Source of the DNA: an uncultured delta proteobacterium
Lineage (GTDB): Bacteria > Desulfobacterota > Binatia > Binatales > Binataceae
Direction: 5' to 3'
Assembly: GCA_963765675.1 (NCBI GenBank)
Contig: CAVXXK010000005.1
Span: forward strand, 27,170-91,169
DNA length: 64,000 bases
The notes beneath the pieces are model-generated. The model had not been told where the DNA came from. It ran no database searches and saw only the letters and a list, made by a program, of their open reading frames with translations. Positions 26,491 to 50,738 of this stretch are shown here, in pieces. The number at the start of each line of letters is the position of its first letter. Position 1 is the stretch's first letter. Both the position numbers and the translations under genes were made by a program.

Positions 26491-27348
26491 CTAGCCGAGC
26501 TTCATCGCCTCAAAACCTCCGATCATGTCCAGTATCTCGGTAGTGACGGCCTCCTGACGCATCCGGTTCATGGTGCGACTAAGTTCCGTCGCTTTGTTGG
26601 AGATATTTTCGTGCGCCGCCTCCATTGTGCGGAATCGTGCGGCGTTCTCGCTTGCGAATGATTCCATCGCGGCTGACTCGAGGATTGCGAACATGTATTC
26701 CTCCGCCAGCTCGTCGAGGAGCCGGCGCGGCTTCATGTTCACGATAGGAGGCAGCCCGTTTTGATTTTTTTCGACGGATGGCGTTTCTAACGGCAGAAGT
26801 TTCAATCTGACAAGCTCGGCGTGCTGACCAGCTGCTTCGCGAGTGAAGATCGCTTCGACGCTCGTAAGCGTTCCAGCGATGAACATCCGGTATAGCTCGG
26901 CCGCCACCCGGCGGGCCGTCGCGGTGACGCCCCCGCTATAAGTGGCCATAGGAAGTATCAGCGCGGGTACGAGTCCGCACTCGGAGGCACGCTGCGCTCC
27001 GCGGGTCCCGACGAAGATCAACCGGAGATTCGGCTCGGTCCGGGACGCGTTTATGGCGGCACGGATGACGGACTCGTTGAAGGCGCCGCAAAATCCATGC
27101 TCCGAGCAGAAAACGACGAGGCCGGGCTTCAGCACACTGCTGATGACCGAGGCAACATCTTTGTCTGGGACCAAAATCGCTGCCTCGCCAACTGCACTGC
27201 GGATTATGATGGAGTAATCGCGAATCGCATCGAGCGAGCGCTGGCTCTGCTGCATCTGCACCGCGGCCATCGCACGGAGTGCCGCGACTATCTCAAGCAA
27301 CTCCTTGAGCGAGGCGATTTGCGTGGCGATGTCCTGTGCTCGTGCCAT
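26491..27348 (-). CDS. atpG: N-ATPase gamma subunit
   Basis: SEHGFCGAFN, SENAARFRTM, RQEAVTTEI. Confidence 0.93.
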   Translation of the reverse strand: MARAQDIATQIASLKELLEIVAALRAMAAVQMQQSQRSLDAIRDYSIIIRSAVGEAAILVPDKDVASVISSVLKPGLVVFCSEHGFCGAFNESVIRAAINASRTEPNLRLIFVGTRGAQRASECGLVPALILPMATYSGGVTATARRVAAELYRMFIAGTLTSVEAIFTREAAGQHAELVRLKLLPLETPSVEKNQNGLPPIVNMKPRRLLDELAEEYMFAILESAAMESFASENAARFRTMEAAHENISNKATELSRTMNRMRQEAVTTEILDMIGGFEAMKLG

Positions 27349-27355
27349 CGTAGTG

Positions 27356-28915
27356 TCATTTTGTGGGAGCCTGCGTGATAGCGGAGCCGCCCAGATGCGC
27401 GATCAATTCCGCCATCAGACATCGCAGAGCCACATGTGTATCGTCGTCGAGTTCACCGGTCGATTTAATCCGTTCAATCAGCGCAGCATTTGTTTCGCCA
27501 AGCTTTTGCGCAAGCGAGTTGCGGAGTTCGGTCACCTTATTCAAGGGCAACGGATCGAGCATCGCCTCGTTGAGGGCCAGAAGCAGCGCAACTTGATGAG
27601 GCATCGCCAACCCCGAGAATTGCGGCTGTGTCAGGACGGCGCGGATCCGGCGGCCGTGTTCAATGATGCGGCGCGTACGCTCGTCAACCATACCGCCGAA
27701 GCGCGTGAAAATCTCCAGTTCGAGAAACTGCGTATACTCAAGGCGCAGGTTCTCCGCCAGCTTGCGCAAGGCCGGGGCCTGGGTTTTGCCGCCCACGCGC
27801 GACACGCTTTTTCCGACATTGATGGCAGGCTTCTGGCCCTCCTGAAAAAGCCGGGGCTCGAGAACGATCTGCCCGTCGGTAATCGAAATCAGATTGGTCG
27901 GAATGTACGCCGAGATGTTGCCCTCTTCGATCGCGGCAATCGGGAGCGCCGTGAGCGAACCGCCACCGCGCTCGTGGCTCAACTTCGCCGCGCGTTCGAG
28001 CAGGCGGGAATGGATATAGAAGATGTCTCCCGGGTAAGCTTCCCGTCCGGGCGGATTCCGTAACAGCAGCGAGAGCTGCCGATAAATGACGGCGTGGCTG
28101 GTGAGATCGTCGATAACGAGCAGCGCATCGCCGCCGCGTTCGCTGAAATACTCCGCCATCGTGCAGGCAGCATACGGCGCGAGCCATTGCAGCCCCGGAG
28201 GATCATCCGATGCGGCGATCACGAAGATGCATCGCTCAGGCGCACCGTAACCTTTGACCGCTTCGATTACCTGAGTGACGGAAGAGATCTTCTGCCCGAC
28301 CGCGCAGTATACGCATATAACGCCCGAGTCGCGCTGATTGACGATCGTATCGAGGGCGATCGCGGTCTTGCCGGTCTCGCGGTCGCCGATGATCAGCTCG
28401 CGCTGGCCCCGTCCAAGCGCGAGCATGGAATCGATCACCACCAGCCCGGTCTGGAGCGCCTGGCTCACGAGGTCGCGCTCGATGATGCCCGGGGCGGCCC
28501 TTTCGACCGGTTCGAAATTTTTGAGCTTTAGTTCCGCGCCGCCGTCAAGCGGAATACCGAGTGGATTAACCACGCGCCCCAGCAGCATCTCTCCAACCGG
28601 CACTCTGGCGACCGCTCGAGTTCCGCGAACGCGATTGCCCGCCGCGATTCCTTCCGCCGGGCCGAGCATGGCACAACCGATTAGATCGCGATCCAGCGCG
28701 AGCGCCATCCCCGTTACAGGTTGGCCGCCGTCTTTTCGTTCGAACAGCAGCAACTCATTGAGTCGCGTCGTTGGCAGGCCGGATACCGTCGCAACCTCGT
28801 CGCCGATGCTCTCGACGCACCCGAGCAGATCGACCGTTGGCGCGGGAATGAGATTCTCAACGCGCCGCGCGGCTTCATCCAACCGTTGCCTCACATTCTC
28901 AGACAGCGTGCTCAT
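27356..28915 (-). CDS. atpA: N-ATPase alpha subunit
   Basis: GRGQRELIIGDRETGKT, PPGREAYPGD, SVSRVGG. Confidence 0.96.
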   Translation of the reverse strand: MSTLSENVRQRLDEAARRVENLIPAPTVDLLGCVESIGDEVATVSGLPTTRLNELLLFERKDGGQPVTGMALALDRDLIGCAMLGPAEGIAAGNRVRGTRAVARVPVGEMLLGRVVNPLGIPLDGGAELKLKNFEPVERAAPGIIERDLVSQALQTGLVVIDSMLALGRGQRELIIGDRETGKTAIALDTIVNQRDSGVICVYCAVGQKISSVTQVIEAVKGYGAPERCIFVIAASDDPPGLQWLAPYAACTMAEYFSERGGDALLVIDDLTSHAVIYRQLSLLLRNPPGREAYPGDIFYIHSRLLERAAKLSHERGGGSLTALPIAAIEEGNISAYIPTNLISITDGQIVLEPRLFQEGQKPAINVGKSVSRVGGKTQAPALRKLAENLRLEYTQFLELEIFTRFGGMVDERTRRIIEHGRRIRAVLTQPQFSGLAMPHQVALLLALNEAMLDPLPLNKVTELRNSLAQKLGETNAALIERIKSTGELDDDTHVALRCLMAELIAHLGGSAITQAPTK

Positions 28916-29654
28916 TACGAATCAATTCCCGTTGCGCGTCGGCTAAAGCGTCGCGCCAACTGAAATGCAGAACCGCATGAGGAAACTTCAGCTCCGCGCC
29001 GGCAATCAGATCCTTGTCAGTGGCAAACGTGATTTGCGAATGCCCGAGTCGTTCACTCAGTGCCGCGCGCCATTTGGACTCACCCGCTGGGCTCAGCGGA
29101 TATGCGGTCGTCACGATCAGTTGCGCGCCGTCGCGTCCGAACTCGCTGGCAAACGCTGCGCGGTCAGCCGCCGCCAGATGGTCCAGATGATCAAGCACGC
29201 GTTCCAGGAATAGTTCGTCGAGACCCGGCGCAAAGAACTGCTGCAAGAGTCGTTGCGCGAGTCCGACGGCAATTTGTATCGAGCGTTCGAACAGTTCACG
29301 CGACGCGGTGTCCCGTTCTTCCTCCACCCGCTTGGAGGCGGCAGCTTTCAGCTTCTCGATGTCGGTGCGCGCCGCTTCGATCAAATTCGCACGTTCGGCG
29401 GCAAGCTGAGTACGTGCTTGATCGATAATGGCTTGCCGTTCGGACGCGATTTGAGCCTGGCGCGACTCGAAATCCTTACGCGCCGCTTCGGCGCTTTGGC
29501 GAGCGGTTTCCGCCTCGGACTGAACCCGAGCGATTTCCGTTTTGCGCTCGGCAACGATCGCGCCCACCGGCTTGAATAGGAAGCGCTTGAGCAGCCAGAC
29601 CAGGACGAGAAAGTTAATCGCCTGCAGCGCAAATGTTGTCCAACTGAAAGACAT
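28899..29654 (-). CDS. atpF: N-ATPase b subunit (long, with delta-like C-terminal domain)
   Basis: WTTFALQAINFLVLVWLL TM helix, coiled coil, DLIAGAEL. Confidence 0.92.
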   Translation of the reverse strand: MSFSWTTFALQAINFLVLVWLLKRFLFKPVGAIVAERKTEIARVQSEAETARQSAEAARKDFESRQAQIASERQAIIDQARTQLAAERANLIEAARTDIEKLKAAASKRVEEERDTASRELFERSIQIAVGLAQRLLQQFFAPGLDELFLERVLDHLDHLAAADRAAFASEFGRDGAQLIVTTAYPLSPAGESKWRAALSERLGHSQITFATDKDLIAGAELKFPHAVLHFSWRDALADAQRELIRNEHAV

Positions 29655-29899
29655 CAGCGGACGGCGAAAGGATTGGCGAACAGCAGCAGCAATGCCACGA
29701 CCAGGCAGTAAATGGCCATCGTCTCGATCATGGCCAGGCCTACGAAGAGCGTGCGCGACAACGCACCCGCCGATTCCGGCTGCCGTGCGATACCCTCCAT
29801 CGCCGCCGCAATCGCGCGCCCTTCGGCGAGGGCCGGACTGATCGAGCCGACCGCGACAGCCACCACGGCGCCAATTATGCTGATCACCTGCACGGTCAT
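29654..29899 (-). CDS. atpE: N-ATPase c subunit
   Basis: PALAEG, ARQP loop, MIETMAIY. Confidence 0.95.
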
Positions 29900-29915
29900 A
29901 ACTGATCCTCCATTA

Positions 29916-30584
29916 CTACTTCTCGATTGAACCGACTGCGCCACCGATATAGACCGCCGCCAGCACCGTGAATATGTAGGCCTGCACGAGGCCAACCAGG
30001 ATTTCGAACGCCATGAACGGAATTGGCACCAGCAATCCAGCCAGCGCCACTACTATCGCGATGACGAGTTCGTCACTCATGATATTGCCGAACAGCCTCA
30101 TCATCAGCGAGAACGAACGGGTGAATTCCGAGAGTATGTTGAGTGGCAGCAACAGCGGATTGGGCTTCAGATAGCCCTTGAGATAACCTCCGAGCCCATT
30201 CTGCTTCACGCCGAAAACATGCACGGAGAAAAAGACGATTACGGCCAATGCCGCCGGGGTTTCGATCACAGCGGTAGGTGCGCGAACTCCGGGCAGGACG
30301 CCCGAGAGATTAGCTACGACAAGAAACACGAATAGCGAGCCGAGCAGCGGCACAAACGGCGCTGGGTCGCGATTGACTATTCCTCGAACCTGCTCCTCGA
30401 TGGCGCCCACGAGCGTCTCAATCATCGCCTGCACGCTATTGGGTACCGCGCTCAATCGGCGCGTCGCGAGACGGCACGCGATAGCCAATACCGCTATCAG
30501 CACCCAGGTCGTGACGACAGGACCCGTAATCGGAACCGGGCCGATGCGAAACACGACCATCGCTTCGAGGGGAGAACCGATCAC
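29916..30584 (-). CDS. atpB: N-ATPase a subunit
   Basis: [22 protein letters not shown]. Confidence 0.95.
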
Positions 30585-30865
30585 GACACCCCCTCTAACA
30601 CCGCAGTTTTCGTAATGATGGCGAAAATCCTCACCAACTGAAATCCGGCCAAGGCTGAAAACAATGGCGCGGCGCCTAATTCGGCAAATCCAAGGAAAAC
30701 TACTGCGATGACGACGAATCGCGTCAGGTGAATGAACGACGCAAGCCGGGTTGCGGCGTTCCTGCTATAGAGGCGAACGTTCCATTCGAGCGCGCCGAAG
30801 AATGCCGCCCCGAATGCCGCTCCCAGGATGAGACAACCCAATAGTTTCAGATCAAGGATATTCAC
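30581..30865 (-). CDS. atpR: N-ATPase AtpR membrane subunit
   Basis: Small hydrophobic ORF (FFGALEWNVR..R...GF..R) at the atpR position. GTG start overlaps the atpQ stop. Confidence 0.8.
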   Translation of the reverse strand: MNILDLKLLGCLILGAAFGAAFFGALEWNVRLYSRNAATRLASFIHLTRFVVIAVVFLGFAELGAAPLFSALAGFQLVRIFAIITKTAVLEGVS

Positions 30866-31170
30866 GCGTCCGCCTGCATCCTTTTCCAGACCATGTAAAA
30901 GCCCACCGCCGCACCGAGGAAGACAAGAGTTGCGCTCCAGAAAACTCCGGAGTGAAAGGTCCGGTCCAGCCATCGGCCAATGAAAGCGCCCAGTAACGTT
31001 GGACCAACTATGGTCCATCCGAACCTACCCATCATCCCGAGGGCACGTCCGAGCGGCAGTTCGCCGGTTCGTTTCCAGTATTCGTGTCTGGCACTGATTT
31101 GATCGACAACGTTCACCAGCTTGCGTTCCTCCGGGTCGGAAGGTCCGCCACTTTTGCCATCCGGCGTCAC
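30862..31170 (-). CDS. atpQ: N-ATPase AtpQ (AtpZ/AtpI family)
   Basis: GWTIVGPTLLGAFIGRWLD. Confidence 0.88.
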   Translation of the reverse strand: MTPDGKSGGPSDPEERKLVNVVDQISARHEYWKRTGELPLGRALGMMGRFGWTIVGPTLLGAFIGRWLDRTFHSGVFWSATLVFLGAAVGFYMVWKRMQADA

Positions 31171-31595
31171 GGTTTGCGCACCAGCGGATCCCGTCGCTGC
31201 TCGCCGGGACGCAGATAGCGATAAAGCTTCTGAATCGCGGCGCGCTGCAGGCCCAAAGCTCCGAACCGCGCGGCCTGTTCCGTTTCCGCGTTTTTCTTCA
31301 TGTGCGCTAGAACGACCTCGCGAAGATCTTTGAGGTTCTCGCCGAGAACGGCCTCGCGCGTCGCAACCTCCACGGAATTGCCGTTACGCGCACGAAAAAC
31401 GCCGCCACGAACCGCTGCCCAACGTTCCAGGCCGGTCGCGTCACGCCAGGTCAGCACGCTGATCGCGAGTGCGGTCAGGAAATCCGCGTGTTCCTGCTGT
31501 ATCCCGAACGCTCCGGTCGAATCCTCGGCGCGCACGTAGCTGACATTGTCAGCGTCCACTACGATCGCGGTGGGTGTGGTGATGACTAGTTTCAT
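31167..31595 (-). CDS. atpC: N-ATPase epsilon subunit
   Basis: MKLVITTP, RAEDSTGAFGI...HADFLTAL, VRGG. Confidence 0.9.
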   Translation of the reverse strand: MKLVITTPTAIVVDADNVSYVRAEDSTGAFGIQQEHADFLTALAISVLTWRDATGLERWAAVRGGVFRARNGNSVEVATREAVLGENLKDLREVVLAHMKKNAETEQAARFGALGLQRAAIQKLYRYLRPGEQRRDPLVRKP

Positions 31596-31605
31596 CGGGA
31601 CTTTT

Positions 31606-35546
<3,941 letters not shown>

Positions 35547-35660
35547 GAATTTTTTCGCTTCGTCACGTTCGCGAATTGAGAAGAAAGAACGCAAGTATCA
35601 TCAGTCTCCACGATCGATATTCAAAACCATGAATTGAATACATTTTGATATTCCTGGCCA

Positions 35661-36493: not shown

Positions 36494-36973
36494 TTATTTC
36501 GCAGCCGTAGATCGCGCGCCGATTCGACCTCGAGACACCGCCAAAAAAACCTCGGCGACCTGATCGCGTAGCTGCCAATTAACTCCGCCACGAAGCGGCC
36601 GTCCCGCCTCATACGCCAGATCGTCCAGCGAGAGGACTCCAACGAGTTTGCCGTCCGGCCCAATCACCGGCAGGCGGCGAACATGCTTCTGGCCCATCAG
36701 CCGCATCGCGTAGTCGAGTTCATCGCTGACCTGGCAGCAAACAACTTCGCGAGCCATCGCGGCTTCGACCGTGATTGCGTGTATGGGCTTGCCTTGAGTG
36801 TAGGCGGCCATGCAGATGTCTCGATCGGTTAAGAATCCGATAGGTTTGGAATGCGGATCCACCACCGGAACCGCGCCACAAACATTCTCCCACATAAGTT
36901 GAGCTGCTTTGTTAAGTGAGTCTTGGGGGCTACAGGCTTTCACCGCGCGATTCATCATTTGTTCAACTTTCAT
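36494..36973 (-). CDS. CBS domain protein
   Basis: Tandem CBS (GAVPVV..TDRDI; VRRLPV..GVLSLDD). GGAGG RBS before ATG 36973. Confidence 0.9.
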   Translation of the reverse strand: MKVEQMMNRAVKACSPQDSLNKAAQLMWENVCGAVPVVDPHSKPIGFLTDRDICMAAYTQGKPIHAITVEAAMAREVVCCQVSDELDYAMRLMGQKHVRRLPVIGPDGKLVGVLSLDDLAYEAGRPLRGGVNWQLRDQVAEVFLAVSRGRIGARSTAAK

Positions 36974-37038
36974 TGTGTCCTCCGCACGCAAATCCTGCTC
37001 CGATATCTCGAACGAGGATCGATCTCGCAGATCGATCT

Positions 37039-38655
37039 TCATGCGTACGACTGAAACAGGCCGCGAAGCGAGCCTTCGATCCGTTCCAAGGCCGGTTCAA
37101 TATCTTCGCTGGTGTCGACTTCCAAATGACGACCGGCTCGCACCTCGGTTATCGGTTCGAAATCTGCGCGTTGATTCAAATATATTTCCGCAGTCGCATC
37201 CGAAACCTCACTATCCTTGGTTGCACGCTCGCGCAACCGCCTCAACACTTCGCGCTCAGGCGTTTGGCATTCTACAAACAGGACCGGTTTTCCGGCCTGT
37301 GCGCCGACGCCCAGGGCGTCGCGCCGGTCCTCCGGTCTTTTGAACGTCGCATCGATGATGACCCCGCAACCATCGCATAGGTAATCGCGCGCTTCTGTCA
37401 GCAGAGAGTCATAGGTCAGCCGGTCGAAACTTGGAGAATAGATCCCGGCGCCGTAAGCAGCCCTGGCGCGAGCGGTTTCAGACAAGCCCGCAAGTCGCTT
37501 GCGGATACGATCGGAGCTGAGAATAGTGAACCCGGTGCGGTAGCTGAGTCTTCGGCTGATCGTCGATTTGCCGGTGCCGGCAAGCCCGCAAACGATCACG
37601 AGCGCCGGCCTGCCGCGCAATGCGTAACGAAACGCCAGGGAGAAATTGGCACGCGCGCGCTCGCGCGCCTGCTCGCGCTCCGACGGCGGCACTTCATCCT
37701 CAAGACTTTTGATGCTCTCCACTTTACCGCGAACGCAGGCGCGGTAGCATTTGTAAAACGTGGTCAAGGTTGCGAGCGTCTCATCCCCGGATTCTTTTGC
37801 GTAGGTATCGATCAATTCATCGGCCAAATGCGGAGCGCCCAGCGCGTCGAGGTCCATCGCCAAAAATGCGATGTCCGAAGCGACGTCGCCGTAACGCAGG
37901 CGTTCGCTGAATTCGACGCAATCGAAGATCTGAATTCCATTGCTCATGCAGACGTGTTCGCATCTGAGGTCTCCATGCCCCTCTCGCACACGTCCCGCGC
38001 GGACTCGATCGTTCAGCAATGCCCAGTGCGCTCCGATGAAGCCTTTCAGATAATCTTCGATTGCGGAGAACTGCGGCCTGGTAACTGTGTAACCCGCAAA
38101 GCGCTCGCTCTCATCGAGGTTGCCGAGTACTGAGCGCCAAACTGACGTTGCAGACCCATAACGCAAGCCGCCGGCGGTAGAAGCCTCGCGATGAAAGGCG
38201 GCCAGGGTTTTCGCAAGAGCCTCGATCATCGCGGCGTTCGCTTCTCCGGAACGTAGCAACCGGTCAAGCATTCGGCTGTCCGGAAGCCGCCGCATCTTGA
38301 CCGCATACTCGTGTGCCTGAGGATTGAAGTCGCGACTCTCCGCGCCCAGAACAAAGCGCTCGCCTTCGCGGAGGATTGGCAGAACGCCGAGATAGACTTC
38401 GCGCGCAAGACGCCGATTCAGGCGTACCTCTTCGCGACAGAGCGCATAGCGAGTAGCGAGAGTGGAACAGTCGGCAAAATCAAACCGAACCGGCTTCTTG
38501 ATCTTGTAGACGTACTCATCCGCGAGGAACACACAAGACATATGAGTTTGCCTGAATTCGACCCGTGAAGGGTGATCCGGATAAAATTCCGGCCTCATCA
38601 TCGCGTCCACGAGGCGCGCAGTGGGCGCCCTTGCGCTGGCTCCTCCGTCAGGCAT
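37039..38655 (-). CDS. aminoglycoside-phosphotransferase-like kinase fused to P-loop AAA_33 (Rv2004c-like)
   Basis: THMS.VFL, YKIKKPV, HGDLR, FDCVEF, Walker A GLAGTGKS, DATF. Confidence 0.88.
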   Translation of the reverse strand: MPDGGASARAPTARLVDAMMRPEFYPDHPSRVEFRQTHMSCVFLADEYVYKIKKPVRFDFADCSTLATRYALCREEVRLNRRLAREVYLGVLPILREGERFVLGAESRDFNPQAHEYAVKMRRLPDSRMLDRLLRSGEANAAMIEALAKTLAAFHREASTAGGLRYGSATSVWRSVLGNLDESERFAGYTVTRPQFSAIEDYLKGFIGAHWALLNDRVRAGRVREGHGDLRCEHVCMSNGIQIFDCVEFSERLRYGDVASDIAFLAMDLDALGAPHLADELIDTYAKESGDETLATLTTFYKCYRACVRGKVESIKSLEDEVPPSEREQARERARANFSLAFRYALRGRPALVIVCGLAGTGKSTISRRLSYRTGFTILSSDRIRKRLAGLSETARARAAYGAGIYSPSFDRLTYDSLLTEARDYLCDGCGVIIDATFKRPEDRRDALGVGAQAGKPVLFVECQTPEREVLRRLRERATKDSEVSDATAEIYLNQRADFEPITEVRAGRHLEVDTSEDIEPALERIEGSLRGLFQSYA

Positions 38656-38666
38656 CGCCAACCCTC

Positions 38667-39473
38667 TCAATCCTCTTCCAGGAACGCTCTGAGGATGTCG
38701 CTGGCAGTGATCATCCCGACTAATTGACCGTCTTCCAGCACGGGCAAGCCATCGACTTTCCTTTCGGATAGAATTCGCGCGGCGTCATGGACCGGCGTCG
38801 TCGGCGACACCGTCACCGGATCTTCACCCATCGCTACCCGAACTTCGGTATGCTCCAGACTGGATGAGTATTTGTACAGGTCGTGATAACTGACAAGGCC
38901 GGCTAGACGCCCCTTTTCGATCACCGGCGCGCAGCGAAAATTGCCCTCTTGCATGCGTGCTTGAACGGTTGAGAGTTTCTCGTCCGGAGTAGTCGTCACA
39001 GGGTTAGAACTCATCCATCTGGCGACAAGATGTTTGTCCGCTTCGCCGCGGCGAACGCAGAGCACGGGGCATGGCGCCGCGCGAAGAACCATTTCCGCCA
39101 CGCTGCCGAGCATGACGCGAGAAAATCCCCGCCGCCCATGCGTCGCCATTACGATCAGGTCGGCCGCGCTCCGCTTGGCAATCCTGAGGATTCCGCCAGC
39201 AGGATCGCCCATGTAAGTCAGTTGCTCGGACTTAATACCCGGAAGTCGCTGGGTCGCAATTTCGCGCAGTTTCTCCCGCGCCGCTTCCTCCTGTCCCTGG
39301 TAGATGTCGACATAGACAGGCATACCGGTCGGTGGAATTACCATTGGCACGACGTGCAGCAACAGGATTGTGCCGTCATTTTGGTGAGCGATCCGTGTTG
39401 CCACATCTAAGGCCGCCAGAGAGCTGTCGTCGAAATCGACCGGGCTCAGGATTCTCCTGAATGGAAAGGGCAT
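38667..39473 (-). CDS. universal stress protein-CBS fusion
   Basis: ILSPVDF, MATHGRRG..LGSVAE followed by a CBS pair. Confidence 0.9.
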   Translation of the reverse strand: MPFPFRRILSPVDFDDSSLAALDVATRIAHQNDGTILLLHVVPMVIPPTGMPVYVDIYQGQEEAAREKLREIATQRLPGIKSEQLTYMGDPAGGILRIAKRSAADLIVMATHGRRGFSRVMLGSVAEMVLRAAPCPVLCVRRGEADKHLVARWMSSNPVTTTPDEKLSTVQARMQEGNFRCAPVIEKGRLAGLVSYHDLYKYSSSLEHTEVRVAMGEDPVTVSPTTPVHDAARILSERKVDGLPVLEDGQLVGMITASDILRAFLEED

Positions 39474-39514
39474 TGAAACGCCTCCGTTTCTGAAACAACT
39501 CGCAATACTCTATA

Positions 39515-39529
39515 GCCAGCGTCGTGCCA
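39515..39529 (-). promoter_or_regulatory. sigma54 promoter for the USP-CBS/kinase/CBS operon
   Basis: TGGCACGACGCTGGC. Confidence 0.6.
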
Positions 39530-39575
39530 GCCGATCTCAGGCAGGGTCTCGGACAACTCCCGGCGCGACGATTCG

Positions 39576-39627
39576 GGTGCCCTTTGGATGCACGCGATGC
39601 TTTTTCAGAGTGTATCGAACGGAGCCA
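39576..39627. promoter_or_regulatory. tandem putative UAS sites
   Basis: TGCATCCAAAGGGCACC (reverse complement of 39576-39592) and TGTATCGAACGGAGCCA (39611-39627). Confidence 0.5.
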
Positions 39628-39643
39628 ATCTTCAGTTTGCCTT

Positions 39644-39658
39644 TGGCAAGCGATTTGC
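39644..39658 (+). promoter_or_regulatory. sigma54 promoter for the CBS gene
   Basis: TGGCAAGCGATTTGC. Confidence 0.65.
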
Positions 39659-39687
39659 GACGATTTTGAAGCAACGAGGAGGACTCA

Positions 39688-40080
39688 ATGGACATTACCC
39701 ACTGGATGACTTGCAACCCTGTTTGCGTAACGTCTCACGACACGCTGGCCAAGGCCAAGTCGCTGATGGATGCTGGACACTTCCGGCGGCTTCCAGTTAT
39801 GGATCGCGGAAAGCTCGAAGCAATTATCACCGAGCGCGACATTCGCCAGCATCTGGGCCACCTCGACTCGACCAAAGTGAGTGCGGCGATGACGCCGAAT
39901 CCGATCACGATCACTTCACGCATCACGGCGGAAGATGCGACCCGCTTGATGCTCCAGCATAAAATCGGCGGACTACCAGTCATCGAGAACGGCAAACTCG
40001 TCGGGATCGTAAGCACCAGCGATCTGCTAAGAGCACTTCTGGATGTGCTGCAGGCGGCCCAACATATAATGGACGCTTGA
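39688..40080 (+). CDS. CBS domain protein
   Basis: FRRLPV..ITERDI; KIGGLPV..GIVSTSD. GAGGAGG RBS. Confidence 0.92.
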   Translation: MDITHWMTCNPVCVTSHDTLAKAKSLMDAGHFRRLPVMDRGKLEAIITERDIRQHLGHLDSTKVSAAMTPNPITITSRITAEDATRLMLQHKIGGLPVIENGKLVGIVSTSDLLRALLDVLQAAQHIMDA

Positions 40081-40193: not shown

Positions 40194-40781
40194 TCAAGCG
40201 ATCTCGTCACGGGCCGAGTTATCCTGCCTGACCGTGAGCACCGGGCACGCGGCTTCCCTGATCACCCGCTCTGCGACACTGCCCAGGAAAAGGCGCGGAA
40301 CCCCGCGGCGTCCATGCGTGCCTATCACGATCAGATCTGCCTTCAATCCTGACTGAACCGCGTTCACTCTTTCGGCAACATCACCCGTCGTGACGAACAG
40401 GTCATATCGAATATCGTGAAGCTGCCGGTCGGCGATTTCCTTAATCCTCCGTTTGGCCGAATGTTCTTCCGTATCCCAATCAGGAACGGATATGCCCGCG
40501 GTGGAACATGTATGAAGGAGATAAAGTTCTGCGGCGTTTTGAGACGCCAACCGGCCCGCCATGCCGAGCGCCTTCAGCGAGTTCTCGTCAAAATCAATCG
40601 GGCACAGAATTCGATGAAAGAGTTTCAACGGCTCCCCCTGTTGACGATCTGTCGCCGCTCGCTTCTCTGCGCGACCGCGTAGCTGCGTTAGCAGCTTCTC
40701 GTCTCTCTGTGCGGCCCACTGACGCTCACGCGCCTGCTCCGCCTGCCGAAGTTTCTCCCCGTACCGATCCTTTTCGTCCAT
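40194..40781 (-). CDS. universal stress protein with N-terminal IF1-like charged helix
   Basis: USP core ILCPIDF...GTHGRRG..LGSVAE, preceded by a ~50-aa charged helical extension. Confidence 0.88.
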   Translation of the reverse strand: MDEKDRYGEKLRQAEQARERQWAAQRDEKLLTQLRGRAEKRAATDRQQGEPLKLFHRILCPIDFDENSLKALGMAGRLASQNAAELYLLHTCSTAGISVPDWDTEEHSAKRRIKEIADRQLHDIRYDLFVTTGDVAERVNAVQSGLKADLIVIGTHGRRGVPRLFLGSVAERVIREAACPVLTVRQDNSARDEIA

Positions 40782-41059: not shown

Positions 41060-41250
41060 CGGCTCTCAACAACAGGGCGCCCTGAACTTACGCTGATTCT
41101 TCGATGACCAGATCCTCGGCTATGCTGATTTGTCCTGGGCTCTGGCAGATACGCGAATGGGCTCCGCACGCGCCGTCGGCGTCCACCACTATATTTCTAA
41201 ACCGATCGACGCGGGGCGCTTCTCGCAAGTAGTCTCCTTTCTCGAGCTCC
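41060..41250 (+). pseudogene. degraded response-regulator receiver remnant
   Basis: Frame-broken ..LIL/DDQ.. and ARAVGVHHYISKPIDAGRFSQVVSFL resemble AILDDQ..ARTNGAQYYVCKPLSPERFGQVLESFL of 42508-43440. Boundaries approximate. Confidence 0.5.
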
Positions 41251-41306
41251 GGACACCGGCCATCATTGCGATTCGGCGCTCGACTCATCCGAGGAGTACT
41301 GCACCC

Positions 41307-42356
41307 ATGAAAGCGTTCGTCATGAAAAGCTTAAACCGGGTTGGATTCATCGATAAACCCGTCGCCAAACCGGGCATCCGCGACGCGATTATCAAAACGA
41401 CCAAGGCGCTGATATGCACATCCGACTCACACACTGTGCGCGGAGCGATCGGTCCAAGGGAAAACCTGACCCTCGGGCACGAAGCGGTCGGCGTAGTCCA
41501 TGAAATCGGATCTGAAGTCCGGCTGTTCAAGCCGGGAGACCGTGTGGTCGTGGGAGCCATCACGCCCGATTGGAGTGATATGGCTTCCCAGGCGGGCCAT
41601 TCCTCACAATCCGGAGGACCGTTGGGAGGCTGGAAATTCGCCAACGGTAAAGACGGGGTATTCGCCGAATACTTTCATGTTAACGACGCTGACGCCAACA
41701 TGGCTCGCATCCCCGACAGCGTCACCGATGAATGCGCGGTGTACTGTTGTGACATGATGTCAACCGGATTCATGGCCGCGGAAAACGCTGACATCCCGAT
41801 CGGCGGCACCGTAGCGGTTTTCGCTCTCGGACCTGTCGGGCTCATGGCAGTTGCGGGTGCGAGCCTGCGTGGCGCCGGGATGATCATCGGCGTCGATGCC
41901 ATTCCCGCACGGCAGAAATTGGCGCGTCATTATGGAGCGGATTTGATCATCGACCACGCGAGCGAAGACGTGGCCGGGCAAATCAGGGAGCTGACCGGCG
42001 GTGCGGGCGTCGACTCCGCGATTGAGGCTCTGGGCGCTGGCGAGGCTTTTCAAAACGCGGTCAGCGTCACCAAGCCCGGCGGCACAGTCTCGAATGTCGG
42101 CTATCACGGAGAAGGCGAATTCGTTTCTATCCCGCGAATCGACTGGGGAGTCGGCATGGCCGAAAAGACTATTCGTTCCGGTCTCTGTCCCGGCGGCAGA
42201 TTGCGGATGGAACGCCTGCTGAGAATCCTTCAAGCGGGACACGTCGATCCCACAAGAATGACCACCCATACCTTCCATTTCGACGAGCTCGACAAGGCCT
42301 TTGAGGTCATGGACAAAAAGCTCGACGGCGTCATCAAACCGCTCATCGTGTTTTAG
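41307..42356 (+). CDS. Zn-dependent alcohol dehydrogenase (NADP-type secondary ADH-like)
   Basis: ICTSDSH, GHEAVG, DMMSTG, GPVGL, LCPGGRLRME. Confidence 0.92.
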   Translation: MKAFVMKSLNRVGFIDKPVAKPGIRDAIIKTTKALICTSDSHTVRGAIGPRENLTLGHEAVGVVHEIGSEVRLFKPGDRVVVGAITPDWSDMASQAGHSSQSGGPLGGWKFANGKDGVFAEYFHVNDADANMARIPDSVTDECAVYCCDMMSTGFMAAENADIPIGGTVAVFALGPVGLMAVAGASLRGAGMIIGVDAIPARQKLARHYGADLIIDHASEDVAGQIRELTGGAGVDSAIEALGAGEAFQNAVSVTKPGGTVSNVGYHGEGEFVSIPRIDWGVGMAEKTIRSGLCPGGRLRMERLLRILQAGHVDPTRMTTHTFHFDELDKAFEVMDKKLDGVIKPLIVF

Positions 42357-42507
42357 CCCGCAGCGGCCAAAACCGGACACTAAATACTCAAAGAGCTGCT
42401 GCATGCGCGTCGCCGAAGACGTGGGCTTCGACTCGATGCCTGCGTCAGCAGGCATCGGGCGCGCGTGGCGACCTTCTGGTTCGCAATCGCGGCGTCGCGG
42501 TTTAACT

Positions 42508-43440
42508 TCAATGTTCGACTGCGAAGAGTGCCTTCTGAATCGAAGGAAAGAGCCGACGCTCTTCGTCATCGATTGCGTCGTCCAGGGTGACCGCGAGTCC
42601 TCTCAACGCCAGTCCGGTCTCGCGCGCCTGTGCATCGGTGAGACGATCCGCGCCGGCGTTAGCCATCGCGCCGACAAGCTTTCGCAGGCGGCCGTGATAT
42701 GCGCGGATCTTGCGGGCAGCCGCCGGTGCGAAGCCGCGTTGCCGTTCAAGCCACGGCAGTAAGTCGCGCTCTTCTGCGTCGAGGTGATGAGACAGGATTG
42801 GCTCGATAACCGCCCAGACCTGAGCAGCATCAAGCCTGAGTGGGGACGATTCCGGATTGCGCTCCAGACGCAATCCGGCGAGCGCCGCATCGAGCAGCCG
42901 AGAACGCAGTTGCGAATCTTCGCGATTGAGTTCCCCCGAGAGAGTACGTATTCCCGCGTCGATGCGGGCTGGAGTGTCGGCGCGCGGCCGTTGCGCGGTC
43001 TTCATGGATTTTGCCTCCGTTGAATGCATAAATCGCCCGTCGCCTTGCAGCGTATAAAGGAATGATTCAAGCACCTGCCCAAATCGTTCAGGCGATAATG
43101 GCTTGCAAACGTAGTACTGGGCGCCGTTCGTGCGCGCCCGTTTCTCGTTGCCGTCGGATTGATTGCCGGCGACATAGAGCAACGAGACGCCTGAAAAGAG
43201 TTTGCGAAATTGTTCGAGCAATCGCCCACGATCGCTTTCGTCAACTTCCTGATCGTCGAGTATAGCGAGACGTACGTTGGGCTGTGCGAACACCTCGCGA
43301 GTCATGAATCCGCCCGCTCCACGTTGAACCAGCTTCCAGGGGGGATTGACTACCCGACGGACGAGGTCCGCCAACGCCTCGTCATCGGACAGAAGCAGCA
43401 AACTTGGCGCAAGACGCAAATCCTTCAAATCCTTGTTCAC
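42508..43440 (-). CDS. receiver domain fused to a degenerate hemerythrin/HHE domain
   Basis: REC: LLSDD, AILDD, KP. C-terminal: HHLDAEE..LLP, YH, DDEERRLFP. Confidence 0.7.
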   Translation of the reverse strand: MNKDLKDLRLAPSLLLLSDDEALADLVRRVVNPPWKLVQRGAGGFMTREVFAQPNVRLAILDDQEVDESDRGRLLEQFRKLFSGVSLLYVAGNQSDGNEKRARTNGAQYYVCKPLSPERFGQVLESFLYTLQGDGRFMHSTEAKSMKTAQRPRADTPARIDAGIRTLSGELNREDSQLRSRLLDAALAGLRLERNPESSPLRLDAAQVWAVIEPILSHHLDAEERDLLPWLERQRGFAPAAARKIRAYHGRLRKLVGAMANAGADRLTDAQARETGLALRGLAVTLDDAIDDEERRLFPSIQKALFAVEH

Positions 43441-43463
43441 CTTCGATCAACCGGTTTAAAACC

Positions 43464-43524
43464 GCGTGGCATATGCCAGGAATCGTGATACCGTCAAGTG
43501 CTAGTAGGAGCAGCAAATGTGCCA
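43464..43524 (-). promoter_or_regulatory. two candidate sigma54 promoters for REC-hemerythrin
   Basis: TGGCACATTTGCTGC (43510-43524) and TGGCATATGCCACGC (43464-43478). UAS-like TGTATCCGATAGAGACA at 43572-43588 (reverse complement). Confidence 0.55.
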
Positions 43525-43570
43525 AAGCTGCGCGCCGCTTTAGTCAGCAAAAGGACTCAGTTTCCAATAG

Positions 43571-45100
43571 ATGTCTCTATCGGATACACCGGGAAAGGGC
43601 GAACCCAAAAGGAAATTGGCCGGCGAGGGTGGTCCGCGCCACTACCACCTACTGTGGGACGAAGAGCTTGAGGCGCTGAAGCCTGTCCTCAGTTCAGTGC
43701 TCGAACACCTCGGCGAAGTCGTCGAGCATTGGTATCAGCTCTACGCTCTTCACTTCGGGGACACGCGAAGCCTGTCAGAGCCGGAATTTCGCGACCTGTT
43801 CTTCAACGCGCTGTCGCGAAACACCAAGGATCTGCTCGAAGGAGACATGGATCGCTACGCGATCAATACGATCCGGACCGGCGAACTGTTGTGCGAGCGC
43901 AACGTGCCGTTTGCAGAAATTGTCGCGTCTCTGCATCTCTACGAGGAAAGTGCTTACACCGCCTTTCCCAAGGATCCGCCACCGCCTCTGGAGATCTACA
44001 CGACCTTCGACAAGCTGAGCCATGTGCGCATGATTCTGCTGGCGGATGCGTACTTTCGCTCCGCGTCAGCTACTGCGGGCGCGCGCATACAAGCGCTCGA
44101 ACGGCAAGCAACTCTGGTGGCGCGCGAGAAGCGCAGTATCTTTCACGGCCTGGTTGGCTCCAGCGCAGCGATGCGTCGTCTCTACGATCGAATCGACGCG
44201 GCGGCAGGAACTCGCGGCACTATCTTGATCGTCGGCGAAAGCGGGACCGGTAAGGAATTGGTCGCGCGCGCGATCCACGAATGTGGCGCAGATTCCAGCG
44301 CCCCGTTCGTCGCGCTCAATTGCGCCGCGATTCCGAAGGACCTGATCGAGAGCGAGCTCTTTGGATACAGAAAGGGCGCTTTCAGCGGAGCGAACGCCGA
44401 TTACCTGGGCCTGTTTCGTGCGGCCGAAGGCGGCACGCTGTTTCTCGACGAAGTTACCGAGATGGCGCCCCAAACGCAGAGCAAGTTGTTGCGCGCGGTG
44501 CAGGAACGGAGCGTCCGACCGGTCGGCTCGACCAGGGAGACGCCGGTAAATGCACGCCTGATTGCCTCGACGAACCGCGATCCGGAAGAAGCTGTCCGAT
44601 CCGGCAACCTTCGTCAGGATCTCTATTATCGGCTACAGGCTGGCGTCCTGAACGTTTCGCCTCTGCGGGAGCGCTCGGATGATATCCCACTTCTGGTCGA
44701 GCACTTTATAGAGTACTTCAACGAAAAGCTCCAGCCTCGAATTCCGGTCAGAGGGATCGAGGAAGACGCGATCGCGGCGCTTATGAAGTACTCATGGCCC
44801 GGTAACGTCCGAGAATTATCCAATGCGATCGAGGGTGCGTTCACCTTCGGCCGTTCACCAATGATTCGGCTGCAGGACCTTCCGGTTGGCATCGCCGGGA
44901 GTCGGGTTGGGGAGCCTTTCTGTCAGTCGGAAGGACCGCGGCCGCAACCAGAATCGCCAATTGGCACCTTCGCCGAGGCCGAACGGGAGATTATCGCGCG
45001 GGCACTCAAGAGTACCAATGGCAACAAGGTTCAGGCTGCGGCTCTGCTACGGATCTCGCGTAAGAAGCTTTACGCGAAGATCGAAAAGTACGGTCTGTAG
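43571..45100 (+). CDS. sigma54-dependent activator (bEBP) with globin-like N-terminal sensor and Fis HTH
   Basis: GESGTGKE, ESELFGY.KGAFSGA, LFLDE, WPGNVREL, C-terminal HTH. The N-terminus is helical and protoglobin/RsbR-like. Alternative start TTG ~43616. Confidence 0.92.
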   Translation: MSLSDTPGKGEPKRKLAGEGGPRHYHLLWDEELEALKPVLSSVLEHLGEVVEHWYQLYALHFGDTRSLSEPEFRDLFFNALSRNTKDLLEGDMDRYAINTIRTGELLCERNVPFAEIVASLHLYEESAYTAFPKDPPPPLEIYTTFDKLSHVRMILLADAYFRSASATAGARIQALERQATLVAREKRSIFHGLVGSSAAMRRLYDRIDAAAGTRGTILIVGESGTGKELVARAIHECGADSSAPFVALNCAAIPKDLIESELFGYRKGAFSGANADYLGLFRAAEGGTLFLDEVTEMAPQTQSKLLRAVQERSVRPVGSTRETPVNARLIASTNRDPEEAVRSGNLRQDLYYRLQAGVLNVSPLRERSDDIPLLVEHFIEYFNEKLQPRIPVRGIEEDAIAALMKYSWPGNVRELSNAIEGAFTFGRSPMIRLQDLPVGIAGSRVGEPFCQSEGPRPQPESPIGTFAEAEREIIARALKSTNGNKVQAAALLRISRKKLYAKIEKYGL

Positions 45101-45120
45101 AACTCCTGATCCGTAAACGC

Positions 45121-45137
45121 ACGGCGATCATCGCCGT
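45121..45137. terminator. short palindrome between convergent genes
   Basis: ACGGCGAT-C-ATCGCCGT. Confidence 0.35.
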
Positions 45138-46667: not shown

Positions 46668-47577
46668 CGACGAGCAGACCCGGATAGACCGGGAGATCCT
46701 TTGACCTTTTGAAGCGGAATATGACCGGTAAGACCCGAACATCGACTCGTTCGAGCCTCTCGTCCGACAGCTCAATCTTGGGCGAGACGTAAGGCTGCAC
46801 TCTCACGTATTCGAGCGGGATGCTGATGTTGGTTCCGCGAATGAACATCCGGGCTTGCATCTCAGGTCCCAACTTGAGCCTGTGGATTAGTATCTCGTCG
46901 ATATAACAGCGCACACTGACGTATTCTTCCGACGGCCCTATCACGATGACGGGATCGAAACCCTGGGTATATGTATCGTAGGTGCCCTGGTTGGCCGTTA
47001 CGTAGCTGCCAACCGCCGCCTGAATCGCCAGAACCCTGCCGTCGGTCGGCGCCGTGAGCGTATACCAGGCAAGCAGGGACTTGTCTAACATATAGTTCCT
47101 CACATTGACTTCCTGGTTGCGCGCCGCCACCTTGACCGCGTTGATCGCATCGTCGAGGGTGTACTTGCTTATCGACTTAGGATCGAAGCGATACGAGGCT
47201 TCGTCCTTCGCGAGTTCGTCGCGCACATTCTTGAGTTGAGCATGCGCGTACGCAACCTGGGCCTTCGCGGCTTCCGTCGTCGCATTTTGGACTGAGTCGT
47301 CAAAGCGCATCAGAACTGTTCCCTTACGGACCCATTGACCCTCGTGGACGGGAATGTCGACGATGGTGCCGGATATGTTCGGAAATATATTTATGTTCTC
47401 GCCGTTGTTCTGATAGCTCTCGACCACGCCCTCGGCATACACTCCCTTGGCGTAGGGGTTTGCCGCCGGACTGAATGCCGGACCAAGCGGTGCGCCATGC
47501 AGCCCGTAGAGGTAAGCGCCAATCAAGCCGGCTGCGAATCCGAGAGAGGCCAGTAGTAGCTCGATTCTGGGCCTCAT
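46645..47577 (-). CDS. HlyD/membrane fusion protein
   Basis: N-terminal anchor, lipoyl halves (VHEGQWVRKG; APTDG), ERVDVRVLPV. Confidence 0.9.
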   Translation of the reverse strand: MRPRIELLLASLGFAAGLIGAYLYGLHGAPLGPAFSPAANPYAKGVYAEGVVESYQNNGENINIFPNISGTIVDIPVHEGQWVRKGTVLMRFDDSVQNATTEAAKAQVAYAHAQLKNVRDELAKDEASYRFDPKSISKYTLDDAINAVKVAARNQEVNVRNYMLDKSLLAWYTLTAPTDGRVLAIQAAVGSYVTANQGTYDTYTQGFDPVIVIGPSEEYVSVRCYIDEILIHRLKLGPEMQARMFIRGTNISIPLEYVRVQPYVSPKIELSDERLERVDVRVLPVIFRFKRSKDLPVYPGLLVDVYVAEK

Positions 47578-48272: not shown

Positions 48273-48273
48273 A

Positions 48274-49413: not shown

Positions 49414-49618
49414 GATTTAAGACGAGGGGAGCAAAAAGCGTGCGAGTCATCGCCGTTCGTCACTGCTCACGAGGCTTGTGAAGACATCGGACGCGTGAGT
49501 CCGAAAGCAGCAATGCTGAGATAATCGCAGTGTAGCGAAAGGAAGCAGTGCGCGACTGACGTTTCAATAGAATTTCGAAACGGCTTACCTCGGCCGTTAG
49601 GCTCTGGGGGTCGAGCGA

Positions 49619-50179: not shown

Positions 50180-50217
50180 CTTTACTCTCCCATCCAGGGT
50201 GTGCGGGCTCGCGGTTG

Positions 50218-50688: not shown

Positions 50689-50738
50689 TTTCCTGTTCTC
50701 CATTTGGTAGACGAGAATTTCGTCACTATTTTGCTTGA

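Follow-up and report, generated by a model that had tools for sequence, protein, structure and literature searches.

A widespread bacterial N-terminal helix module, carried by a USP near an N-ATPase operon, as a candidate counterpart of the inhibitory helix of mitochondrial IF1

IF1 is regarded as having arisen in eukaryotes, and yet the nearest match among solved proteins of the bacterial module described here is the IF1 inhibitory helix. In bovine IF1, the contact residues are F22, A28, E30, Y33, F34, Q41, L42, and L45, residues 22–24 being F22, G23, and K24; the Y33W replacement results in a higher affinity, and F34 is one of the positions at which mutation weakens the protein strongly (PMC3041923). 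On the ATPase side, IF1 contacts involve 17 beta, 2 alpha, and 3 gamma residues (PMC10949317). A 2022 review knows the IF1 gene in no bacterium and treats zeta, which it reports as restricted to alphaproteobacteria, as a convergent analogue (PMC9317440). The N-terminal helix of zeta from the F1Fo enzyme of Paracoccus denitrificans is reported to mimic IF1 and to block hydrolysis in a one-way manner (PMC10469736, PMC5795051, PMC9317440). The same review, where it turns to the bacterial brakes on wasteful ATP hydrolysis, includes the C-terminal domain of epsilon and the cyanobacterial AtpTheta (PMC9317440). These two are unrelated to the module in sequence and fold, and epsilon is a core subunit; the N-ATPase encoded in the analysed window has its own epsilon (31167-31718). 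Zeta is a four-helix bundle that possesses neither a USP domain nor a zinc ribbon. Among the USPs, TeaD, which belongs to the TeaABC TRAP transporter of Halomonas elongata, is an ATP-binding protein encoded together with the transporter that it down-regulates, which would set a precedent for the control of an adjacent membrane machine by a USP gene.

The gene which we concentrated on occupies positions 40194-40781 on the minus strand of the window (the whole 64-kb stretch of DNA that was analysed). The ORF list and the translation give an ATG start and a USP of 195 aa, designated P0001. Pfam Usp (PF00582) spans aa 55-185 (40227..40619; E 5.3e-30, 105.3 bits, the cut-off being 24), so that aa 1-54 represent an N-terminal extension. 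The window contains four USP domains, the others being located at 38667-39473, 52339-53172, and 55107-55718, and the extension is confined to P0001, as a preliminary description of this DNA had stated; the string quoted there, EKLRQAEQARERQWAAQRDEKLLTQLR, corresponds to aa 9-35 of the translation. The conserved core of the extension, aa 3-35 (EKDRYGEKLRQAEQARERQWAAQRDEKLLTQLR; 40677..40775, minus strand), was delimited by conservation, by family profile searches, and by its register with IF1, in which it falls on residues 14-46. AlphaFold2, supplied with an alignment of 43 full-length orthologues (A1), predicts a single long helix at aa 3-47 (40641..40781 for aa 1-47), with block-of-10 mean pLDDT values from 62 to 88 across aa 1-50. 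A linker that is poorly conserved in A1 follows at aa 48-54 (40620..40640), and the model is non-helical at 48-56.

The top Foldseek matches of the USP domain are TeaD (3hgm, E 6.9e-11) and MJ0577 (1mjh, E 1.9e-10), with a probability of 1.00 for both; since the aligned lengths span the USP domain only, both proteins seem to have no counterpart of the N-terminal helix. The domain carries the string G154-TH-G157-RRGVPRLFL-G167-S168 (40278..40322), which fits the nucleotide-binding pattern G-x2-G-x9-G-(S/T) of ATP-binding USPs. A1 shows no variation at G167 and S168 and almost none at G157. Judged by this putative motif and by the fold match, the USP domain of P0001 is probably of the ATP-binding type.

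One can suggest that the extension is not translated at all, the true start lying further downstream, at about aa 55, with the frame before it open by chance. Nothing specific speaks for this suggestion, although long open frames are common in this G+C-rich DNA, and we regard it as very improbable. The orthologues, which share 40-91% identity with P0001 over the full length, conserve the extension at the protein level down to 40% identity: D5, R6, G8, E19, W22, A23, A24, D27, L30, and R35 are kept in the 43 sequences, D5 and R6 being invariant. An AGAGG sequence precedes the ATG by about 10 nt. Moreover, a profile made from the USP-type extensions only (A2) and applied to the whole genome detected a single further copy at E ≤ 0.001, an independent paralogue on a different contig matched at E 2.7e-16. 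This second copy is a PF13453 zinc-ribbon protein (L082:1363-1623) encoded upstream of nuoA.

The extension of P0001 is one copy of an undescribed, widespread bacterial N-terminal module. A profile search at E ≤ 0.001 detected the module in 208 representative protein clusters, with the consensus EKDR(F/L/Y)G(D/E)KLRxxExARE(D/N)x(Y/W/F)(F/A)AxRDxELLxKLR, and a profile built from 30 motif-only members (A3) matches the P0001 gene at E 9.2e-20. The commonest carriers are small proteins with the PF13453 zinc ribbon, which Pfam recognises in 35 of 70 diverse members, and some carriers have almost nothing C-terminal of the helix. The module starts at residue 5 or earlier in 127 of 149 representatives, mostly at residue 2-5, a placement which is expected if the helix must insert N-terminus first. 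Within the taxonomic family to which this genome belongs, the module occurs in 158 of 165 genomes and in all 96 of the 96 good-quality ones, and AtpR is present in 60 of the 165; the module is specific neither to USPs nor to the N-ATPase. NCBIfam has no model for the helix, and the Pfam PF13453 model includes the zinc ribbon and excludes the helix. Chain A of 8yoz, a solved PF13453 (Zn_ribbon_TFIIB) protein, lacks the helix, since its alignment, which begins at its residue 5, takes in nothing but the zinc ribbon. Our literature search revealed nothing bearing on the module under USP plus N-ATPase, bacterial IF1, or the PDB entries 7DTL and 8YOZ, and no printed function for the small PF13453 proteins.

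The resemblance of this module to IF1 was assessed with A3 and with a second profile, A5, which comprises 28 zinc-ribbon members and has no sequences in common with A3. Against 177,635 distinct PDB sequences, A3 gave 22 matches at E ≤ 10, and 14 of these are IF1 chains, including all of the top five: bovine 2v7q_J (E 0.0026), 9pew_J (0.0042), 4tt3_H (0.0054), 9w2r_J (0.01), and yeast 3zia_J (0.014). The stretch of IF1 aligned is residues 25-57. For A5, among the matches listed, 13 of the 15 that fall wholly within the helix part are IF1 or plant P2, with E-values of 0.0046 for 6x89_P2, 0.021 for 9pew_J, 0.035 for 2v7q_J, and 0.045 for 3zia_J. The Pfam family of IF1, IATP (PF04568), matches 33 of the 70 diverse members at E ≤ 1, being the second most frequent family after the zinc ribbon only. 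Of 10 short members, 8 have it as their highest-ranking Pfam family, and the register is constant there, protein residues of about 10-44 lying on profile positions 49-82.

These data are to be read together with the limits of the searches. The gathering cut-off of IATP (25 bits) is reached by no member, the best being 22.7 bits (E 1.4e-4). The P0001 extension alone gave neither a Pfam match nor a PDB sequence match at E ≤ 10, the ESM Atlas returned no usable match to aa 1-50, and the USP-subtype profile A2 found three PDB matches at E ≤ 10, with IF1 among none of them. Because neither its own extension nor A2 finds IF1, the link of P0001 to IF1 would run indirectly, via the wider family. We conclude that the resemblance to IF1 appears to go beyond chance for the module family, and not for the P0001 sequence alone. 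The match represents some 30 residues of charged amphipathic helix at E-values from 1e-3 to 1e-1, which convergence fits as well as homology. The preliminary description, which had proposed an IF1-like or zeta-like helix and had pointed to the IATP profile, is thus upheld in part: the family profiles have IF1 as their best match in the very register that it used, and a good share of the members show sub-threshold IATP similarity, but the cut-off is missed and the extension on its own is silent. The zeta-like version was rejected, since there was no profile match in any scan: zeta (DUF1476) is absent from all Pfam scans of P0001 and its relatives, and no Pfam family except Usp is found in P0001 at E ≤ 1.

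At the level of residues, the ungapped register gives seven identities between IF1 and P0001 (E26=E15, Q27=Q16, A28=A17, E30=E19, R37=R26, L42=L31, and L45=L34), that is, 7 of 22 positions over IF1 25-46. All of these had been named previously, as had the Trp (W22) in place of Y33 and the loss of F34 and Q41, which are A23 and L30 in P0001. L11 in place of F22 holds in the ungapped register only and lies beyond the HMM alignment. In the family as a whole, Glu at the positions of IF1 E26 and E30 is invariant or nearly so, and A28, L42, L45, and an aromatic residue at Y33 are mostly kept. Among 150 representatives, the pair corresponding to Y33/F34 reads YF in 70, WA in 47, and FF in 14; F34 is thus kept in both the YF and the FF subtypes, FF being the pair of yeast IF1. 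The most invariant part of the module, KDRxG (aa 4-8), has no known counterpart among the key residues of IF1.

It may be supposed that the extension lacks a target and is a coiled-coil or spacer helix whose only part is to shape a USP dimer or tetramer, its likeness to IF1 being compositional. The conserved stripe L11, E15, E19, W22, R26, L30, and L34 would also suit a coiled-coil interface, and such a role agrees with the lack of significant similarity of the P0001 extension to anything and of A2 to IF1. However, the same invariant positions are preserved in hundreds of USP-less proteins, some of which are nearly helix only, and the extreme N-terminal placement of the module speaks against a spacer as well. 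Besides, HMMER scores are corrected for composition, and in the A3 search IF1 nevertheless outranks all other charged helices of the PDB. We consider this explanation improbable.

Our best reading, held tentatively and at somewhat less than even odds, is that the module may act as an IF1-like plug on the head of an F-type ATPase. The two have in common an N-terminal amphipathic helix of similar length, a constant register of the best match, and a C-terminal part that could dimerise or regulate. The module differs in that it is bacterial, has no presequence, gives scores which are all below the Pfam cut-off, and starts with the invariant KDRxG that IF1 lacks; its helix is followed by a USP domain or a zinc ribbon, whereas the C-terminal part of IF1 is a His-rich coiled coil. 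P0001 in particular comes from a bacterial genome and ends in a USP domain, and so departs from IF1 as a eukaryotic mitochondrial protein dimerising through a C-terminal coiled coil. With zeta it shares a bacterial origin, and zeta is encoded outside the atp operons.

In the plug mechanism which we propose, the free N-terminal helix would enter a catalytic alpha/beta interface, as IF1 does at alphaDP/betaDP, and block rotation in the direction of ATP hydrolysis. The invariant E19 (IF1 E30) would pair with R454 of beta (bovine R408), and W22, L31, and L34 would rest against the beta C-terminal domain. In this scheme, the USP domain may stand in for the dimerising and regulatory C-terminal part of IF1 and make inhibition depend on the cell's adenine-nucleotide state. 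For the USP-fused form, the likely target would be the neighbouring N-ATPase, or else the housekeeping F1Fo. Bovine beta V404 and R408 correspond to V450 and R454 in the N-ATPase beta, both invariant in 34 beta sequences of this class, which would permit binding; the pocket residue S405 is replaced by Glu, and the specificity residues D471 and L473 by Ala and Ser. A complex prediction for the extension with beta 131-524 and alpha 96-519 of the N-ATPase (alignments of 34 and 33 rows) returned a score of 0.00 and a mark of 0.32, read as ‘no answer’, which counts neither for nor against binding.

We also considered that the Ala in place of F34 might make up for the Glu found at beta S405. This idea was dropped, the WA pair being found also in zinc-ribbon forms from genomes that lack the N-ATPase; a second objection is that the consensus of the beta alignment, made mostly of housekeeping copies, has Ala at that position.

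The N-ATPase that the preliminary description had placed in the same locus is a real operon supported by Pfam at 26491..33180 on the minus strand. It comprises beta (atpD, 31606-33180), epsilon (atpC), AtpR (30581-31018), a (29916-30584), c (29654-29995), b/delta (28899-29654), alpha (27356-28915), and gamma (26491-27348), and starts 7 kb from the USP gene on the same strand. The genome also has a separate housekeeping alpha/gamma/beta set, which is located on contig C1. In the interval that separates the USP from the N-ATPase (36494..40080), Pfam reveals genes that co-travel with the USP elsewhere: a CBS pair (36494-37042, minus), an APH+AAA_33 kinase-like protein (37039-38670, minus), a USP-CBS protein (38667-39473, minus), and another CBS pair (39688-40080, plus). 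Since this neighbourhood represents a stress island with other USPs, CBS proteins, Hsp20, and more, the proximity of the USP to the N-ATPase may reflect shared regulation only.

USP-fused genes were collected from at least 13 genomes among the matches listed (12 verified by sequence and one candidate, G178). AtpR is present in 10 of these 13 genomes against 50 of the 152 others (Fisher p 0.0024, for related genomes and among the matches listed), and absent from G117, G123, and G178. The suggested co-occurrence with the N-ATPase is supported for the USP-fused copies, which are enriched in AtpR genomes; the module itself is far more frequent than AtpR. In five genomes, AtpR is on a different contig from the fusion; in five others, belonging to two genera, the fusion lies no more than 21 kb from AtpR. 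In G053 it immediately precedes atpD on the same strand, and in G073 it is 1.1 kb from gamma; in G000, G003, and G009 the distances to AtpR are 10, 12, and 21 kb (7-21 kb from the N-ATPase operon). The steadiest neighbours of the USP-fused gene are USP-CBS, the APH+AAA_33 kinase-like gene, Hsp20, a sigma-54 activator, and hemerythrin: in 11 USP-fused loci from other genomes, USP-CBS flanks the gene in nine, and the APH+AAA_33 gene is present in five.

The zinc-ribbon forms have different surroundings. They are encoded upstream of nuoA on the same strand, directly 5' of nuoA-nuoB, in 16 of 20 loci of the family and in this genome as well. In another lineage, where ORFs of metagenome loci were called with a GC3 filter and Pfam, a large divergent gene adjoins the zinc-ribbon form in 8 of 8 long loci, and the four tested are clpB. 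The 80 metagenome loci (371 kb) contain neither ATP synthase nor nuo genes, and in the loci examined zinc-ribbon forms stand beside nuoA or clpB and never beside atp genes.

These contexts, together with the prevailing neighbours of the USP fusions, speak for another explanation, which we also treat as a serious, though less than even, possibility: the helix may be a partner-binding or oligomerising module of the stress response directed to a non-ATPase target (ClpB, complex I, RNA polymerase, or the ribosome), to which the USP recruits nucleotide sensing, the likeness to IF1 being convergent. The weaker PDB matches, which include two subunits of complex I, NDUFA13 and plant P2, are consistent with this, as is the invariant KDRxG. 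On the other hand, the helix matches of both A3 and A5 are led by IF1 and not by partners of chaperones, of the complex I core, or of RNA polymerase; the next helix-type Pfam family after IATP, DUF6243, matches only 7 of the 70 members. The constant register and the conserved positions, which coincide with contact residues of IF1, point in the same direction, and in G053 an N-ATPase operon begins with the fusion gene.

If the plug reading is correct and the module inhibits, it would represent a new class of bacterial ATP-synthase regulator, provide a rationale for N-ATPase switching, and make the USP domain a sensor for a defined effector helix, thereby touching on the long-standing question of USP function. 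A broader proposal, which we rate as less likely than not, is that this is the first prokaryotic counterpart of IF1, homologous or convergent: a widespread plug-helix family repeatedly wired to sensor domains, in which the zinc ribbon would serve the housekeeping enzyme and the ATP-binding USP would turn off N-ATPase hydrolysis according to the adenylate or stress state. If true, it would reopen the origin of mitochondrial IF1. If there is no inhibition, what remains is a widespread and so far undescribed N-terminal element of small proteins linked to stress, encoded beside nuoA, clpB, and USP islands.

A contig profile scan with the full-length alignment revealed mainly ordinary USPs, the module being present in 1 of 80 loci (L001). 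Comparison of the helices indicates that they were joined to USPs at least twice. The USP-fused helices of P0219 and P0247 share 72-79% identity with zinc-ribbon forms of the matching type, whereas the Binataceae-type USP helices come nearest to the WA-type zinc-ribbon forms.

The open reading frame at 40194-40781 on the minus strand starts with ATG and encodes 195 residues, with a Usp domain at residues 55-185 (Pfam, E 5.3e-30). Since the domain begins only at residue 55, 54 N-terminal residues remain as an extension, including the string (residues 9-35) that the preliminary description compared with the inhibitory helix of mitochondrial IF1; as stated there, this extension is confined to one of the four USP domains in the window. 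The USP domain is of the ATP-binding structural type, the nearest structures being TeaD and MJ0577 and the G-x2-G-x9-G-S string being present. Homologues in a collection of 5.8 billion proteins, two of them named Candidatus Binataceae, have 184-222 residues and cover 94-100% of the query. In 43 aligned USP-type orthologues D5 and R6 are invariant, G8, R18, E19, W22, A23, A24, D27, L30 and R35 are kept in at least 90%, and residues 40-54 are variable. AlphaFold2, supplied with this 43-sequence alignment, predicted a single helix at residues 3-47 that passes through a short linker into the USP fold (mean pLDDT 80.4). It is very improbable, beside such homologues, that the start codon has been wrongly placed and the extension is an artefact. 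In the closest orthologue, L124:13416-14090 (minus strand, genome G003), the helix is cut off from the USP domain by an in-frame TAG; gene decay to a pseudogene, a sequencing error or a true pair of genes could each explain this split copy.

Profile searches show the extension to be one copy of a widespread, hitherto undescribed bacterial module. A profile of 16 USP-type extensions, built from the extension part only (A2), found a second copy in the source genome: an 86-residue protein (L082:1363-1623, minus strand; G000 contig C4:254711-254833, minus strand) in which the helix is followed by a PF13453 zinc ribbon. By the same profile, 37 of 41 related class genomes carry the module, as do 158 of 165 family genomes, including 96/96 of good quality; these class and family counts include seven genomes flagged as unpublished (G010, G057, G058, G134, G178, G179 and G180). 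Among 1.84 billion representative proteins, 208 clusters match A2 at E <= 0.001, and the module begins within residues 1-5 in 127 of 149 representatives. Most carriers are small proteins, some scarcely longer than the helix itself. PF13453 was matched by 35 of 70 diverse members and Usp by 12 (Pfam), and a model of the helix is absent from Pfam and NCBIfam. In P0219 and P0247, which are USP fusions outside the Binataceae type, the helix is 72-79% identical to the zinc-ribbon forms of its own subtype, so the helix has joined a USP domain at least twice. DUF6243 (PF19756), which gave sub-threshold matches to 8/16 USP-type extensions and to 7/70 family members, may be another lineage of the module helix.

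The proposed kinship with IF1 was not borne out by the extension of this gene as a query: its 54 residues matched nothing in Pfam at E <= 10, hence not the IF1 family model IATP (PF04568), and nothing among PDB sequences at the same threshold. In such searches the likeness of this single sequence to IF1, taken alone, is not significant. The USP-subtype profile A2 gave three PDB matches at E <= 10, IF1 not among them. A different picture was obtained with the wider family. With profile A3, made from 30 motif-only members, a search of the 177,635 distinct sequences in the PDB returned 22 matches at E <= 10, of which 14 are IF1 chains (cow, other mammals, yeast, Euglena and Neurospora), including the best five (E 0.0026, 0.0042, 0.0054, 0.01 and 0.014). 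The other eight are PSK (7dtl), a terminase small subunit, plant P2/At2g27730, two NDUFA13 chains, eIF2B alpha, Nup120 and a GST-PAK1 fusion. Profile A5, made from 28 zinc-ribbon members and sharing no sequence with A3, gave 97 matches at E <= 10, its ribbon part matching 8yoz_A at 7.8e-9. Among the 60 of the 97 that were listed, and leaving out a few weak matches spanning helix and ribbon, the helix-only matches (query 9-45) are led by plant P2 (0.0046 and 0.01), which we take to be a member of the IF1 family, and include eleven IF1/ATPase inhibitor chains (0.021 to 0.66); apart from these, only PSK and eIF2B alpha appear. The helix part of A3 and that of A5 match the 91-residue PSK (7dtl chain A) at E 0.024 and 0.049.

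In the reverse direction the IATP model, built from eukaryotic IF1s, matched 33 of the 70 diverse members at E <= 1, the next helix-type family, DUF6243, matching 7; it also matched 4/16 USP-type extensions and the zinc-ribbon paralogue of the source genome (E 0.014). IATP is the top family for 8/10 short members, and protein residues about 10-44 always fall on profile positions 49-82. The best score is 22.7 bits against a cut-off of 25, so that no module member would be placed in the IATP family by the Pfam rule. The module family therefore resembles IF1 through weak yet reciprocal and reproducible profile matches; IF1 is its nearest solved relative, and the likeness of this gene to IF1 comes only through its clear membership of the module family. 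Literature searches, to which subscription journals were largely closed, returned nothing on a bacterial IF1-like helix module with a USP domain or a zinc ribbon, nor anything on the module through USP with N-ATPase, PF04568, PF13453, 7DTL or 8YOZ. What is probably new is that bacteria carry an IF1-type helix, attached to a USP domain or a zinc ribbon and scoring below the IATP cut-off.

The A3 alignment covers IF1 residues 25-57 in the ungapped register already proposed (E15=E26, E19=E30 and W22=Y33). In that register 7 of the 22 IF1 positions 25-46 are identical, namely E26, Q27, A28, E30, R37, L42 and L45, and the extension indeed has W at Y33, A at F34 and L at Q41. In the portions of Bason et al. 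(PMC3041923) on the final complex, the binding residues of IF1 are F22, A28, E30, Y33, F34, Q41, L42 and L45; E30 forms a salt bridge to R408 of beta-DP, F34 occupies a pocket of beta V404, S405 and R408, and Y33W raises affinity. Across the bacterial family, the Glu at the E30 position and the one at E26 vary hardly or not at all. The Y33-F34 pair is YF in 70, WA in 47 and FF in 14 of 150 representatives, yeast IF1 having FF. Our extension is of the WA subtype and keeps the equivalents of A28, E30, L42 and L45, and F34 and Q41 are without equivalents; the most invariant stretch of the module, K-D-R-x-G at residues 4-8, has no known counterpart in IF1. That the helix is purely a structural coiled coil is unlikely: with its invariant positions unchanged, it also heads many proteins without a USP domain.

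On the enzyme side, V450 and R454 of the N-ATPase beta subunit correspond to bovine V404 and R408 and do not vary among 34 beta sequences from the class; Glu stands at bovine S405, Ala at D471 and Ser at L473. These last three are among five beta residues named in section 2.3 of PMC10949317 as deciding whether bacterial F1 accepts bovine IF1. With beta R454 and the helix Glu both conserved, an E30-type salt bridge would be possible in a pocket that differs. The reading that we tentatively prefer is that the helix of the USP fusion would enter the alpha/beta interface of an F-type head as a plug and that the USP domain would gate this plug helix. The known brakes on ATP hydrolysis named in the review PMC9317440 are epsilon, zeta, IF1, the chloroplast gamma disulfide and AtpTheta; according to this review, bacteria are not known to have an IF1 gene.

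As the preliminary description stated, an N-ATPase is present in the locus (beta, epsilon, AtpR, a, c, b/delta, alpha and gamma at 26491-33180, on the strand of the USP gene); a housekeeping alpha/gamma/beta set lies on a separate contig. The longest atpD frame, 31606-33180 (minus strand), overlaps the end of the upstream phosphorylase-like gene (33027-35594, minus strand) by about 150 nt; beta homologues align only from residue about 55-60, so the true start is probably further downstream. USP-fused genes were confirmed by sequence in 12 genomes (G000, which is the source genome, G003, G009, G022, G053, G064, G073, G091, G117, G121, G123 and G130), and a thirteenth candidate comes from G178, flagged as unpublished. 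Among the matches listed, AtpR, which marks the N-ATPase, is found in 10/13 USP-fusion genomes vs 50/152 others (Fisher p 0.0024; unpublished-flagged genomes included), an enrichment that is indicative only, because the genomes are related and 61 weaker matches are unlisted. Three fusion genomes show no AtpR and in five it is on a different contig. The USP gene lies 10, 12 and 21 kb from AtpR in G000, G003 and G009. In G053 atpD, starting at 810 or about 876, comes next after the USP gene (277-834) on the same strand, and the USP gene looks like the first gene of the N-ATPase operon; in G073 the USP gene and the operon converge, 1.1 kb and a single ordinary USP separating it from gamma. The genomic tie of the fusion to the N-ATPase is loose, yet repeated. 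A gene for the helix with a double zinc ribbon lies 300 bp past N-ATPase gamma in G064, a single case among many such genes.

More constant companions of the USP fusion are genes for USP-CBS, an APH+AAA_33 kinase-like protein, Hsp20, a sigma-54 activator, a hemerythrin and DksA. The locus is thus a stress island that often, but not always, includes the N-ATPase. The main rival to the plug reading is that the helix has a different, stress-related binding partner and is only convergent with IF1; we regard this as almost as likely as the plug, and well ahead of a structural coiled coil or a misplaced start codon. The kinase-like gene (37039-38670, minus strand) encodes 543 residues with APH-like and AAA_33/zeta-toxin-like P-loop kinase domains (Pfam); the gene runs over the USP-CBS stop, and 5/11 USP-fused loci from other genomes carry it as well. 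The rest of the island (41130-50754) holds a Zn-dependent dehydrogenase, a hemerythrin-domain protein, a sigma-54 activator, a MacB-type ABC efflux set with an outer-membrane factor, a DksA/TraR zinc-finger protein and Hsp20; much of this content recurs beside the USP fusion in other genomes.

The zinc-ribbon carriers have other surroundings. In the source genome and in 16/20 family loci the gene is flanked, all on one strand, by an FmdB-type zinc-ribbon gene on one side and nuoA-nuoB on the other; 0/6 loci from the other families in this class show the arrangement, and these counts, too, include unpublished-flagged genomes. In another high-GC lineage a divergent gene of about 880-970 residues adjoins the zinc-ribbon form in 8/8 long metagenome loci (L129, L141, L167, L171, L175, L185, L191 and L199) and proved to be ClpB in 4/4 tested, which suggests heat-shock co-regulation. 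ATP synthase and nuo genes are absent from the 80 metagenome loci (371 kb; 22 loci of at least 5 kb). A variant of about 180-200 residues with two zinc ribbons (L096:1763-2329 and L122:10382-10984, both on the minus strand, and P0154) often stands in tandem with a single-ribbon gene, upstream of nuoA.
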